DNA of 63,335 nt, filler included. It is 6 parts of 6 records of this genome, joined end to end, with 100 filler letters (N's around TTAATTAATTAA, not from the genome) between each part and the next. Parts side by side here need not be neighbours in the genome. Positions count along the whole stretch, not along the records: positions 18,777 to 32,067 come from DRR378314_2145; 5 more parts are not named here. The stretch is one strand, 5' to 3'. This document shows, in pieces, positions 18,777-23,491 of the stretch. Within the stretch, counting starts at the first letter, position 1; every line of letters starts with the position of its first letter. Below the pieces are notes generated by a model that was given only the letters and a program-made list of their open reading frames with translations, did no database searches and was not told the DNA's origin. Both the position numbers and the translations under genes were made by a program.

Positions 18777-19230
18777 ACCTAAAGGAGATAAAGGCGACAC
18801 AGGTGCAACTGGTCCAACAGGTGCTGCAGGTACTAATGGAACTAATGGAGCCACCGGCGCTACCGGCCCAACGGGTGCAACAGGTGCAACAGGTGACACA
18901 GGACCTCAAGGAGATAATATGATAAAAGCAATTGGAAAAATATCCGCAACAGGTGGAATTGTAAAAGCGACCTCTGGAATAACGGTAACCAAATTATCCG
19001 GAAACGGGCATTACAGAATAAACCTGCCCTCAGGTATGGTTTCAAGCGCCAATTATATTATACAATTAACGCAGCCCGATAGAAATGGAGCGGGTAACGA
19101 TAACCCTGGAATAGGTTATATTAATCAAACATCCTCCAGTTTTGAAGTAATCATTGGAGATAATGACAATGGAGCATCAGACCGGGTAAGGTTTAATTCT
19201 GAATTTATGTTTATGATTTTGGATTTCTAG
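18777..19230 (+). CDS. Collagen-like protein, 5'-truncated, with a C-terminal ~100-aa beta-rich domain
   Basis: Open frame from the contig edge: [47 protein letters not shown] (Gly-X-Y repeats), continuing in frame into ORF 18919-19230. Confidence 0.85.
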
Positions 19231-19236
19231 GTAATA

Positions 19237-19947
19237 ATGATGATAAGAATTTTTAACATAATCATATTATTCAATTTCGCTTTGGCCATGGAGGCACAAG
19301 TAGACGGAAACTTATTGTTGACCGTTCATAACCTGAATGCCACTGAGTTGGCCGGTATTACCAGCCCGAATGCAGGAAGTTTGGCATTCAACGGTACTAG
19401 TAATTCCTTTACGAATTATGACGGTACTGCATGGACCCAAGCCGCTACAGAGGTTTACATTGGCGACATCAAGACCGGTTTTAGCAATTCGGATCATGAG
19501 GGTTGGTACGTACTGGACGGCCGTAGGCTCAACAGCCTGCCTTCCAATGCCCGAACAGCTGCCTCAAATCTCGGATTTAGGGGAAGGCTACCCAACGCCC
19601 AAGATGTGGTACTTAAACAAAGTAATGGGAGTCAAGGTCTAGGTGATACTGGGGGTAGTGATCAAATTACATTGACCCAGGCTAATTTGCCCAATGTAAA
19701 TTTTTCGGGTTCAGCATCTGCTTCTGGGAACCACAACCATGCGGTTAACGGTAGCTTTAGTGATGAAAGAATAAGAAACAGCGTAGATGCGTACAGAAAT
19801 TTGTTGTTGGCAGGAGGCAACATGTCATCCAGCACAGAGGGTAATCACAACCATAGCTTTACCGTAAACAGTGGTGGATCATCAATTGCCATAAGCCAAT
19901 ATCAACCTTATATAGTGGTAAACACATTAATTTATTTAGGCGAATGA
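19237..19947 (+). CDS. Secreted phage tail-collar/short-tail-fibre-like protein (paralogue 1)
   Basis: Signal peptide ending MEA|Q; IGDIK...GWYVLDG...LPNA; G-TGG-D-ITLTQANLP; two NHNH motifs; C-terminal QPYIVVNTLIY typical of the tail-collar (MdpB-like) family. Confidence 0.75.
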   Translation: MMIRIFNIIILFNFALAMEAQVDGNLLLTVHNLNATELAGITSPNAGSLAFNGTSNSFTNYDGTAWTQAATEVYIGDIKTGFSNSDHEGWYVLDGRRLNSLPSNARTAASNLGFRGRLPNAQDVVLKQSNGSQGLGDTGGSDQITLTQANLPNVNFSGSASASGNHNHAVNGSFSDERIRNSVDAYRNLLLAGGNMSSSTEGNHNHSFTVNSGGSSIAISQYQPYIVVNTLIYLGE

Positions 19948-20688: not shown

Positions 20689-22125
20689 ATGACTAATAAT
20701 TTCGATCATATAATTTTTAATAATAACGGCATCCCGGACTATACAAGGATCTGCAAGGTATTCCCTTATATAATAGCCATGCTATTATATGTAATTCCGT
20801 ATGTAACGCACGCCCAAATAGATCCTGGACTTCTGCTGGGACTAAATACGGCGACCACTACAGAAATGAACGCCATAAATGGATCTATTACGGGGTCCAT
20901 GATCTACAATACAACAGATAAGAAAGTATACTATTACAATGGAACCAATTGGGTAACCCCATCAAATGACAACTGGTTATTGGATGGGAATACGGCTGTA
21001 TCCGGAGCATCATTTTTAGGAACTAAAAATGATGTAGCCATGGACATTAGATCTAACAATACCAGTATACTAAAATTTGGTAGGCGACAAACCCTTGGTT
21101 TAGTCCAAAATTATCCGGATTATACGGACCAAAATCAATATTTAACCTACGTTGGTGGAGCTAATGGCGTCTCCGCCCTGCAATTTCAGGCAGATGCGGC
21201 CTCTTTCTACAAGCCGATGTTCTTTACCAACACAGATGGTAATTTTAGACTTAAAGGCAGTGCCGCTGGAACCGATTTTTTTGAAATTGGATCTACCGGA
21301 ACATCCAACAATGGTCAGCTAGAGTTTATAATAGGTGATGATGGTTCAGAACCCTTTATCTTTAAAAGATATGATTACAGGGATGGTCTCCTCAAAGAGC
21401 TTTTCCGAGTTCAGGGAAGCAGTGATTCCCAAAATGCACTGCCTAGGGTAGGTATCAATACAGGATCTTTGGCCAATTCAACCTTACAAATTAATGGCTC
21501 AATGTCTACTGCGATTACTACTGCCGGAAGTAACCTAACCTTGAATGAAAGCCATCACACAGTAATTATTAATTCCAATATTTCCATTACCCTCCCAGCC
21601 GCAAACGGAGCAACGGGTAGAGTATATGTCTTAAAAAATATTACACAGCAAACTTTGACCATTAGTCCATATATAAATGAAATAGGAGATTCAACTACAG
21701 AATTGACCTCCAAAACCGTAATCTGGCTACAGAGTGACGGGACCCAATGGCAATTGATAAATCGCTTGGGAGGTCAAAATGGAAATGGCGGGGGTAACCC
21801 TGACGGCACCTTGACCACAGATTTGATCGTTTATACTTTCCAAGATCAATGGAACAGTGGATTCATGTTACAATTTGGGAATAGAACCAATTCCCCAATA
21901 GATTACAGGATCGTAGTTGAAAATGTCCCTTATGAAACGATCCCAAACCTTAATTTAGGCAACCACACCCACCAGGTAATAGATAACGGGAATGGTACCT
22001 ATAACCACATATTTAGAAGTACACAGGCACTAGGTGCTTATGACAATACCACCATAAGAGGATCCAGAGTTTCCCCTAGGGGCATTGGGAATAGTTGTAA
22101 CTGTGTCTCATTTTATAGATTATAA
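20689..22125 (+). CDS. Secreted fibre-like protein with putative C-terminal carbohydrate-binding (CBM2-like) domain
   Basis: Hydrophobic stretch ending THA|Q; WLLDGN...FLGTKND; RVGINT...STLQING; ITLPAANGATGRVYVLKN; Gly linker, then YTFQDQWNSGF. Start codon uncertain. Confidence 0.6.
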   Translation: MTNNFDHIIFNNNGIPDYTRICKVFPYIIAMLLYVIPYVTHAQIDPGLLLGLNTATTTEMNAINGSITGSMIYNTTDKKVYYYNGTNWVTPSNDNWLLDGNTAVSGASFLGTKNDVAMDIRSNNTSILKFGRRQTLGLVQNYPDYTDQNQYLTYVGGANGVSALQFQADAASFYKPMFFTNTDGNFRLKGSAAGTDFFEIGSTGTSNNGQLEFIIGDDGSEPFIFKRYDYRDGLLKELFRVQGSSDSQNALPRVGINTGSLANSTLQINGSMSTAITTAGSNLTLNESHHTVIINSNISITLPAANGATGRVYVLKNITQQTLTISPYINEIGDSTTELTSKTVIWLQSDGTQWQLINRLGGQNGNGGGNPDGTLTTDLIVYTFQDQWNSGFMLQFGNRTNSPIDYRIVVENVPYETIPNLNLGNHTHQVIDNGNGTYNHIFRSTQALGAYDNTTIRGSRVSPRGIGNSCNCVSFYRL

Positions 22126-22312
22126 TGAAGTAAAAAATTATTGAACATGCCTCCAATGAATTAATTTAAGAAATACCCTATTAATTAAGCCTTAGGCAGC
22201 ACAGTTAATGATATATGACGAAAGAATGGCCTGTCCTGGTACAAAAGATAAAAACAATTAATTAGATAAGTACAACATATAATGGTAAAGTCACCCACAT
22301 TCCAGAAACCTT

Positions 22313-23491
22313 ATGAACTGTATTAAAAACATATTTATTACAATTATATTCATAGGTGTATTGTTAGGTAATGCCCAGGATGCGGTACATAATTATGGCA
22401 ATATTCAAATACATGAAACTGCCATGGTAGGTTTCCATATGGATGTCATTAACGATGGTACCTTTGACGAGAATTTAGGTTTGGTAGGTTTTTATAGCGA
22501 TAACCACCCCTTGACCATTTCCGGAGCCTTTGCCCCTGTCTTTTATGATTCCGAGGTAGCTGTAAATGACGGACTATATCTGGAAACAAGCGTTGGGGTA
22601 TTGAATAATTTCAACTTCATACAGGGCAACGTATTTACGCCTAGGAATCGCTCCAACGTTTTCCTAAACTTTTCCGATGATTCATTTTATGTGGGCGAGG
22701 GAAACAATACTAAAATTGATGGCTACGGGGCTATTGCCAATAAGGAATCCTTTACTTTTCCGGTAGGGGATGATGACCGTATGAGACCTTTGACCATAAC
22801 TTCGGAAAGCGTTAATGCACTGGCCAAATGTGCCTATTTCTTTGTAGCCCCGGATAACCAATCCAGTTTTAATGAAAATTTCAATACGGGCGCAAGGGAC
22901 TTTAATGTGGCCGCCGTAAGTAATCAGGAATTTTGGCGCTTGGAGGGAGACTCCCCCAGCACAGTTACTCTAAGCTGGGATGAAAGAAGCAATATTGGTA
23001 ATCTTGGGGAATATATTAGTGACCTGATAGTAGTAGGCTGGAGTAAAAGTCAACAGAAATGGGTCAACCTAGGGAATTCCGCATTGGAAGGAGAATTTTC
23101 CTTTGGAACATTAAGTTCGGATACCTTTGTACCAAATGACTACGACATCATTACAATCGGTGGGGCACTTGATCTAAATGAAAGCCTTACCACCATAGAA
23201 TTGGGCAATTATTTTTTAACACCCAACGGTGATGGCACCAACGATTATCTTGTAATTGATGGTATTGAGGAATCTCCCAACAATCTACTTCAAATCTTTA
23301 ATAGATACGGTGTACTGGTATACTACAAAGAAAATTATAGGGATGAATTTGAAGGTATTTCCAACAGAAATATGTTGGTCAAAGGAGATATAGGTCTGTC
23401 CTCTGGAGTGTATTTTTACATCATCACCCTAAACGATATTAAAATAAAACATCAGGGCTATTTATACTTATCCCAAAATTCGCAAAACTAA
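22313..23491 (+). CDS. T9SS type-B (gliding-motility-associated/CHU) C-terminal domain protein
   Basis: Signal peptide ending GNA|Q; C-terminal LTPNGDGTNDYLVIDGI...LQIFNRYGVLVY...LSSGVYFYII...GYLYL. Confidence 0.9.
   Translation: MNCIKNIFITIIFIGVLLGNAQDAVHNYGNIQIHETAMVGFHMDVINDGTFDENLGLVGFYSDNHPLTISGAFAPVFYDSEVAVNDGLYLETSVGVLNNFNFIQGNVFTPRNRSNVFLNFSDDSFYVGEGNNTKIDGYGAIANKESFTFPVGDDDRMRPLTITSESVNALAKCAYFFVAPDNQSSFNENFNTGARDFNVAAVSNQEFWRLEGDSPSTVTLSWDERSNIGNLGEYISDLIVVGWSKSQQKWVNLGNSALEGEFSFGTLSSDTFVPNDYDIITIGGALDLNESLTTIELGNYFLTPNGDGTNDYLVIDGIEESPNNLLQIFNRYGVLVYYKENYRDEFEGISNRNMLVKGDIGLSSGVYFYIITLNDIKIKHQGYLYLSQNSQN

Follow-up and report, generated by a model that had tools for sequence, protein, structure and literature searches.

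A candidate branched surface appendage encoded by four CTD-less fibre genes and one type-B CTD gene in an Arenibacter-like flavobacterium

Introduction

Type IX secretion system (T9SS) cargo is defined by its C-terminal domain (CTD). Type-B CTD proteins leave the cell through T9SS, after which PorP/SprF-like shuttles retain them, the orphans among them using a shuttle encoded elsewhere. How, then, would a surface fibre lacking a CTD be exported and anchored? The question concerns a very large family of fibre proteins in Bacteroidota, which share an N-terminal module (N-module), bear signal peptides but no CTD, and for which our literature search found no route of export or anchoring. It is raised here by a five-gene cassette at the truncated end of an Arenibacter-like contig of 13 kb (DRR378314_2145) from a marine flavobacterium, one part of the 63,335-nucleotide stretch of DNA analyzed in this study (the window). 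We propose, with a probability of roughly 0.45, that the four CTD-less fibre proteins and the single type-B CTD protein of this cassette form a branched surface appendage with ORF5 as the base and ORF2-4 as the tips.

Results

The cassette and its gene products

An artificial N spacer (18677..18776) separates the cassette from an unrelated contig with a GC content of 57% on its left. The five co-oriented ORFs on the plus strand are real, with intergenic gaps of 6, -4, 25, and 187 bp, confirming the tight packing of the first four genes in the original prediction. ORF1 (18778..19230) is the 3' end of a major collagen fibre gene, of which the frame is open from the contig edge that truncates it on the 5' side. 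It matches Pfam Collagen, and 15 GXY triplets precede a C-terminal domain of 103 aa (18919..19227), so that its description as collagen-like holds. The orthologue at L001:2798-9236 starts with a signal peptide followed by a long N-module, and ORF1 corresponds to the end of a giant signal-peptide-bearing collagen in the orthologous locus of A. troitsensis. The C-terminal domain is H-lectin/gp53-C-like, bears two acidic loop insertions, and matches the C-terminus of the Sf11 tailspike gp13 in a profile comparison (E 1.6e-9). Together with the co-occurrence described below, the insertions and the profile match make this domain a candidate docking hub, hereafter the dock. Atlas leads exist for the same domain.

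ORF2 (19237..19947; 236 aa) is an accessory fibre composed of a signal peptide, a short N-module (residues 22-73), and an HxH needle, and ORF3 (19944..20663; 239 aa), also an accessory fibre with an HxH needle, is its paralogue with 49% identity. Each protein has two HxH motifs, of which the four His are invariant across 86 aligned sequences, and both matched tail proteins in PHROG (E 2e-14 for ORF2 and 1e-12 for ORF3). The Pfam scan of the two proteins yielded Gp10_C below the cut-off and no tail-collar family; of the predicted tail-collar/HxH identity, the HxH motifs are confirmed. The structural model of ORF3 (pLDDT 72.7) was most similar to phage fibres and needles in Foldseek, albeit weakly (E 0.002-0.5). 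ORF4 (20689..22125; 478 aa) comprises a long signal peptide, a short N-module (residues 44-96), and shuffled body and tip domains. The ORF4 tip gave no Pfam, PDB, or Atlas match, and the two non-orthologous homologues both lack the Trp found in its QW.SGF motif, so that the proposed reading as a carbohydrate-binding module (CBM) is not retained. ORF5 (22313..23491; 392 aa) consists of a signal peptide, an all-beta base domain (about 22376-23167), a linker, and a type-B T9SS CTD (about 23204-23470). The PDB sequence search returned no useful match for ORF3, ORF4, ORF5, or the N-module.

By a crude hydropathy measure, a hydrophobic stretch is followed by Gln at residue 21 in ORF2, 21 in ORF3, 43 in ORF4, in which the n-region is unusually long, and 22 in ORF5. 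The signal peptides with Gln claimed for the four complete ORFs are thus recovered, and 105 of the 119 Met-starting homologues of ORF3 passed the crude signal-peptide test. The Q-rule, as given in PMC5837995, was applied to Gln22 of ORF5.

The eight downstream ORFs on the contig were found by Pfam scanning to be ordinary cellular genes, as predicted, and none of them is a viral gene for capsid, sheath, tube, baseplate, or lysis. No promoter or terminator signal above chance was found in the locus. RNA contigs covered only scattered pieces and are no evidence of expression. PF26696 is pre-annotated on most of the homologues.

The ORF5 family and its partners

ORF5 scored above the cut-offs of both CHU_C (89.5 bits against 27) and TIGR04131 (43.7 bits against 35), which substantiates the predicted type-B CTD, and CTD-like folds were present among its structural matches. 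The sole strong PDB match of the ORF5 profile was the CTD of GhpA (9flp; E 8e-13). In the fold search, the CTD dominated the list, and the best matches of the modelled base domain, none of them confident, were to beta-helix and ZU5/FIIND/GAIN-like domains (Z 5.3-6.5); these establish neither a new fold nor membership of a family. The base domain also occurs within open frames of 750-4000 aa and is therefore not exclusive to the cassette.

Matches to the ORF5 family were detected in 83 of the 301 Flavobacteriaceae genomes surveyed. The gene order is conserved: 77 of the 88 family genes come after CTD-less proteins that share the N-module, the N-module gene being directly upstream in 72 and within the run in 5. 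Among the others, nine are truncated where a contig or region ends, whereas two have no N-module gene, one of the latter also being truncated. CTD-less fibres thus recur beside genes of this type-B CTD family. The co-occurrence with porP raised by the original prediction holds for a distant ORF5 subfamily (20 loci) but not for the close family. An N-module-type fibre lies upstream in 15 loci of the former, porP comes next in 16, and a PD40/OmpA porE-like gene follows porP where scanned; a co-oriented porP directly downstream was found in 0 of the 84 close-family genes. The genome of A. troitsensis has 12 PorP/SprF matches, and a common unlinked shuttle is used by orphan type-B CTDs according to PMC12618676.

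The N-module and the export of CTD-less fibres

The N-module shared by the cassette fibres resembles a trimerization domain. Its superposition on the collagen XV/XVIII trimerization domains spans 42 residues at an rmsd of 1.4 A, with a probability of 0.99 but an E of 0.5, and the sequence search gave no match to these domains. By this likeness, the fibres would be trimers. The accessory fibres carry a short version that does not include the initial segment of the long module, the core being common to all fibres. None of the 117 N-module proteins has a CTD.

The last point bears directly on export, as the rule that T9SS cargo needs its own CTD, stated in PMC10994853, counts against our model. 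The fibres might instead leave by a CTD-independent route tied to the N-module, ORF5 then being no more than a dispensable tether or a neighbour under shared regulation; the docking of the tips may hold in that case as well. The N-module profile matched 210 of the 301 genomes and the base profile 111, with 8 base candidates scored per genome, and by-eye comparison left about 104 genomes, or about half of those with an N-module, in which no base was found. When 39 N-module loci outside the known cassettes were sampled, 2 had a base-domain neighbour and 37 had none; a strict requirement of these fibres for an adjacent CTD gene is thus not borne out. The base domain can also carry other anchors, one of these two neighbours being fused to OmpA_C and the other to a type-A CTD. 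Nevertheless, we regard a CTD-independent route as rather unlikely. Of the 301 genomes, 67 have the strong long-module subtype together with the strong ORF5 family, 4 have ORF5 alone, and 1 has the module alone. Furthermore, across 66 cassettes the long N-module co-varies with the base domain of ORF5 at a Mantel r of 0.55, while the value for the tip class is 0.13 even though the tip is nearer to ORF5, and a swap test on 16 two-cassette loci gave 107/119 for the long N-module versus 32/43 for the tip class. Genetic linkage by itself could yield co-occurrence and co-variation.

The dock and the accessory fibres

We compared the dock with the accessory genes in 81 cassettes, leaving out L001 and L038, which are near-identical to the window, and four distant genes, and not scoring two mis-started ORFs as accessories. 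Both traits were present in 15 cassettes and neither in 64, with one cassette having only the dock and one only an accessory gene (Fisher p 3e-14). Each trait changed 13 times on the FastTree phylogeny, and among seven phylogenetically independent pairs, about 5.7 pointed in the same direction and 0 in the opposite one (sign test p 0.03-0.06). In additional Arenibacter genomes, an accessory gene came next in 5 of 5 cases with the dock, and in all 12 ORF5 loci without a dock match, a long-fibre tail lay directly upstream and accessories were absent. Three distant dock-like domains (E 1e-18 to 1e-23), from further genomes in the order sample, had no accessory downstream.

ORF2-4 therefore track the C-terminal domain of ORF1 and not ORF5, which makes docking on the collagen tip more likely than on the CTD protein. 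On these gene distributions, the accessories likely dock on the fibre tip. Alternatively, all the CTD-less fibres including ORF2-4 could bind or ride on ORF5 directly, the dock and the accessory genes being a DNA block that moves together. The N-module core common to all fibres would suit such binding, and linkage is expected because the dock and accessory genes adjoin. We consider direct binding improbable, as accessories were found in only 1 of the 65 dock-less cassettes despite ORF5 in every one of them, and the accessories do not have the initial segment of the long module. In addition, the accessories vary from 1 to 5 in number, and in type, behind a constant dock, and related strains without ORF2-3 retain the dock and ORF4.

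Cellular location and relation to phages

The fibres could also remain periplasmic or within the envelope, with a structural or scaffolding role and none displayed outside, as the uniform absence of a CTD would allow; at L116, the base homologue fused to the peptidoglycan-binding OmpA_C lies beside a collagen fibre. A collagen run of more than 1000 triplets, as found at L039, is about 0.9 micrometre long. This length speaks against confinement, as does the shuffling of the tips among 29 clusters, which surface adhesins would show; the same tip domains are fused to collagen (L174, L179, L182, and L184) or reside on separate accessory genes. Altogether, a purely periplasmic role appears very doubtful.

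The cassette is not a prophage, tailocin, or eCIS, because the ORF1 counterpart in the orthologous locus ends a giant collagen with a signal peptide, and the genes read upstream of it are housekeeping genes (9 of the 17 other ORFs were scanned with Pfam, none being viral, and the remainder inspected by eye). That it is a remnant of such a tail-fibre locus is scarcely credible: the PHROG matches of ORF2 and ORF3, the weak matches of the modules to phage fibres, and the weak fold match to the Bizionia C24 needle favour it, but most homologues have signal peptides, a VanY-like neighbour at 44 of 59 loci marks a fixed chromosomal site, and ORF3, at an E of 0.01, had no match among 50,697 phage records. 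The predicted absence of phage-structural context thus extends to the upstream genes read in the orthologous locus, while of the term 'domesticated', the likeness to phage fibre modules stands and the direction of transfer is unsupported.

Discussion

In the branched appendage proposed here, Sec is predicted to take all five products across the inner membrane, and ORF5 is likely secreted by T9SS. ORF5 would grip the collagen trimer of ORF1 at its N-terminal end, and the CTD-less chains would pass the outer membrane with ORF5 or dock after export. ORF2-4 would serve as interchangeable adhesive tips by inserting their short N-modules into the ORF1 C-terminal domain, with adhesion as the presumable function. 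The idea that a CTD protein carries or anchors the CTD-less fibres thus survives in that fibre genes recur beside the ORF5 family, but is less likely for the accessories, which follow the ORF1 C-terminal domain. We more tentatively suggest a distinct class of Bacteroidota appendage, in which a T9SS-tagged base exports and anchors an untagged collagen/beta fibre of about 1 micrometre or less, and a C-terminal hub takes interchangeable secondary fibres via a docking code, with hints of at least three hub/N-module pairings.

For this fibre family, the cassette puts forward ORF5 as a candidate anchor and the ORF1 tip as a candidate branching hub. If our proposal is true, it would describe a modular adhesin platform for marine particle- and alga-colonizing bacteria, and CTD-based secretome predictions would overlook one class of surface proteins. 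Our search of freely available papers found no account of the cassette or its assembly plan.

ORF5 resembles the type-B T9SS cargo that works with PorP/SprF (SprB-SprF, Fjoh_3952-3951-3950, and PG1035-PorP-PorE, with orphans served by Fjoh_1677) in its signal peptide and type-B CTD, and the distant ORF5 subfamily also in being followed by porP and a porE-like gene. In the accessible parts of the literature on this cargo, the adhesins carry their own CTD and CTD-less fibre partners are not described, whereas here it is a 392-aa partner, and not the fibres, that bears the CTD. The grappling hook of Aureispira, GhpA (bioRxiv 10.1101/2024.01.29.577165; PDB 9flp), is a T9SS-anchored extracellular appendage, as we propose for the cassette, and its CTD matches that of ORF5. 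As far as the accessible part of that report describes it, GhpA is a heptamer of one CTD-bearing protein of 5898 aa, with no mention of a separate base, a collagen trimer, or accessory tips. The subunit of an SprB/GhpA-type filament thus has its own CTD, unlike the N-module proteins of the cassettes.

Phage HxH fibres (T4 gp12/gp37, the cyanophage A-1(L) fibre, and Bizionia C24) are alike in the paired HxH motifs of the putative needles, the N-modules that may trimerize, and shuffled tips, with fold matches that are weak (E 0.002 or worse). They differ in that the cassette proteins have Sec signals, a fixed chromosomal site, and a T9SS-tagged partner in place of a baseplate. In the branched receptor-binding systems of CBA120 (TSP4) and G7C, secondary fibres dock N-terminally on a hub domain of the primary fibre. 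A similar docking by N-termini is what we infer for ORF2-4, and the gene co-occurrence fits it with three distant exceptions. If so, the cassette would be a cellular counterpart of these phage systems, combined with T9SS export of fibres that have no CTD.

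The five genes and their locus

ORF1-5 (18778..23491, + strand) lie at the left edge of a contig of 13,291 bp and 40% GC (18777-32067). The window consists of several contigs with N spacers between them, and the remaining ones (1-18676 and 32168-63335; 54-59% GC) bear no relation to the fibre genes. One ORF there (16263-17330) resembles, in its motif, a eukaryotic Cdc20/fizzy WD40 protein, and thus the assembly seems to be of mixed organisms. The tight packing noted for the first four of the co-oriented genes was confirmed (gaps of 6, -4 and 25 bp, followed by 187 bp before ORF5). 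ORF1, of which the 5' end is cut at the contig edge, comprises 15 collagen triplets and a C-terminal domain of 103 aa, termed the dock. ORF2 (236 aa) is a paralogue of ORF3 (239 aa), each having PHROG tail-protein matches and two HxH motifs. ORF4 (478 aa) matched no family; its proposed CBM-like tip was not supported. ORF5 (392 aa) scored over both curated cut-offs for a type-B CTD. Putative signal peptides were seen in ORF2-5, each with Gln after a hydrophobic stretch, as in 105 of 119 ORF3 homologues by a crude hydropathy test. PMC5837995 treats Gln at +1 as a Bacteroidetes rule and not as a sorting signal. The contigs of run X1, possibly the source DNA, are one base shorter than the window at homopolymers 18865 and 19969; with the letters of the window, ORF1 and ORF3 stay in frame, in agreement with the orthologues.

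From the orthologue in Arenibacter troitsensis (L001; 84-97% identity in ORF2-5), ORF1 can be seen to form the last part of a giant collagen that starts with a signal peptide. By eye, the tail (L001:1-807) of the fibre encoded upstream of this collagen resembles a peptidase-S74 intramolecular chaperone, as do 18 tips of cluster t2, with no Pfam S74 match. Another Arenibacter collagen (L039:3924-13802, - strand) has 1063 GXY triplets within 3293 aa, the frame being cut at its 5' end. Such repeats break assemblies, so many cassettes are cut.

Distribution and architecture of the cassette

The ORF5 base (its N-terminal domain) was matched in 83 of 301 Flavobacteriaceae genomes, and regions were taken around 60 of the match sites. 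An N-module protein, with the module just behind the signal peptide, was encoded directly upstream of 72 of the 88 ORF5-family genes and within the run in five; nine were cut by an edge and two had none. None of the 117 N-module proteins carried a CTD. The predicted recurrence of CTD-less fibres with type-B CTD genes was thus borne out. The cassette encodes one large fibre (long module), zero to five small accessories (short module) and the CTD protein, with C-terminal tips of 29 clusters shuffled between cassettes. Recurrent association with porP/sprF held for a distant ORF5 subfamily of 20 loci (fibre upstream in 15, porP next in 16) but not for the close family, in which 0 of 84 genes had a co-oriented porP directly downstream. 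Four ORF5 homologues (L147:12017-14002, L149:5921-7852, L156:12309-14654 and L157:12438-13946) carry long spacers of DxDxDG repeats behind the base, probably calcium-binding stalks.

Some observations count against a fixed pairing. Of 301 genomes, 210 had a match to the long-module profile and 111 to that of the base, and 106 of these 111 also had the module; by eye, ~104 module genomes had no base found. A base neighbour occurred at 2 of 39 module loci away from known cassettes, a choice of loci that favours negatives and omits one extra locus extending a known cassette. The base neighbours at the two loci are an OmpA_C fusion (L116:8026-9141, - strand), adjacent to a collagen fibre, and a type-A CTD fusion (L132:10241-11158, - strand), adjacent to an N-module fibre; here the anchor differs but the pairing is kept. 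Outside the cassette, the base was further found within long multidomain frames, with matches in 19 of 301 phylum genomes.

Co-variation of the parts

Across 66 cassettes, the long module tracked the base (Mantel r 0.55) better than did the tip class (0.13), although the tip is closer to ORF5 in coding order. Within 16 two-cassette loci, module-base matching agreed in 107 of 119 comparisons and the tips in 32 of 43. This fits a contact between long module and base, and shared descent explains it too.

Among 81 cassettes (leaving out L001 and L038, near-identical to the window, and four distant genes, and not scoring two mis-started ORFs as accessories), 15 had both dock and accessories, one only the dock, one only accessories and 64 neither (p 3e-14). 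On the base tree, dock and accessories each changed 13 times; of seven independent pairs, ~5.7 went in the same direction and none in the opposite one (sign test, p 0.03-0.06). In new Arenibacter genomes, with loci reaching only 1.5 kb, a short-module gene was next in five of five with the dock, and the other 12 of 17 ORF5 loci lacked a dock match and had a long-fibre tail immediately upstream. Against this count three dock-like domains that occur in new genomes of the order sample and are not followed by accessories. Shared tip domains are collagen-fused in dock-less strains and on their own genes in dock strains. Contigs of two other runs keep the dock and ORF4 but miss ORF2-3.

Two acidic loop insertions distinguish the dock from the common tip of which it is a variant. 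The Sf11 tailspike trimer has a related C-terminal domain (E 1.6e-9), and there is a weak lead to H-lectin/gp53-C clusters. In L092, L099, L100, L102 and L105, fibres with one common tip type precede ~230-aa signal-peptide proteins (5/5), all four of those seen in full having a DNKGT-type N-module; porP closes L105. This may possibly be a second hub/accessory code. A third class of accessory N-module (AGEGDLY-type) lies behind presumably C1q-like tips in L067 and L070, the last accessory of L070 carrying a dock domain.

Predicted structures

In the ORF5 model (pLDDT 88.8), a flexible linker joins the all-beta base to the CTD, and clear structural relatives were seen for the CTD alone. The second half of the base (window 22600-23170) gave ZU5/FIIND/GAIN-type matches under the confidence level (Z 5.3-6.5); some such domains self-cleave. 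For ORF3 (model pLDDT 72.7), 42 residues of the short module could be superposed on trimerisation domains of collagen XV/XVIII at 1.4 A (E 0.5), whereas the remainder of the protein gave weak matches to the needles of phage fibres.

Proposed mechanism and its alternatives

The most likely mechanism, to which as a whole we give a probability of about 0.45, is the following. All five proteins would leave the cytoplasm by Sec and the fibres would trimerise from the N-module. The T9SS would secrete ORF5, an unlinked PorP/SprF would retain it, and ORF5 would in turn hold the long module of ORF1. The ORF1 tip would receive ORF2-4, whose needles or other tips may mediate adhesion. T9SS use would not require an adjacent porP: PorP-like proteins anchor type-B proteins (PMC9143113), and in F. 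johnsoniae a single unlinked shuttle serves three type-B orphans (PMC12618676).

The weakest step is the outer-membrane passage of an untagged, micrometre-scale trimer. In PMC10994853, a CTD-less reporter is the negative control for T9SS export. bioRxiv 10.1101/2024.01.29.577165 describes a translocon 70 A wide, passed by folded substrates, and presumes assembly of GhpA outside the cell. Export of the fibres independently of any CTD is the foremost rival, albeit an unlikely one. Seating of every fibre on ORF5, as originally predicted, is more doubtful, as the accessories go with the ORF1 dock. Still less probable are fibres that stay periplasmic. A phage remnant is highly improbable, the tail-like matches notwithstanding, as the region missing upstream, read in A. 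troitsensis, holds another cassette, which encodes a 1431-aa fibre and an ORF5 paralogue of 382 aa, with housekeeping genes beyond it. A VanY-like gene within 44 of 59 close-family loci indicates a chromosomal, inherited site. ORF3 had no match at E 0.01 among 50,697 phage records, and the N-module had only weak ones (E 0.002-0.9), for the most part to proteins with a tail or fibre annotation. Of the proposed domestication, the phage-like modules were confirmed but not the direction of transfer. Taken alone, it is very likely that the cassette encodes non-phage, exported fibres.

The literature searched, for the most part at the level of listings and including PMC9936825 and PMC13721041, gave no description of the cassette, although supplements may list such proteins. 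We regard it as a variation on T9SS type-B anchored appendages that has a fair chance of forming a distinct class.
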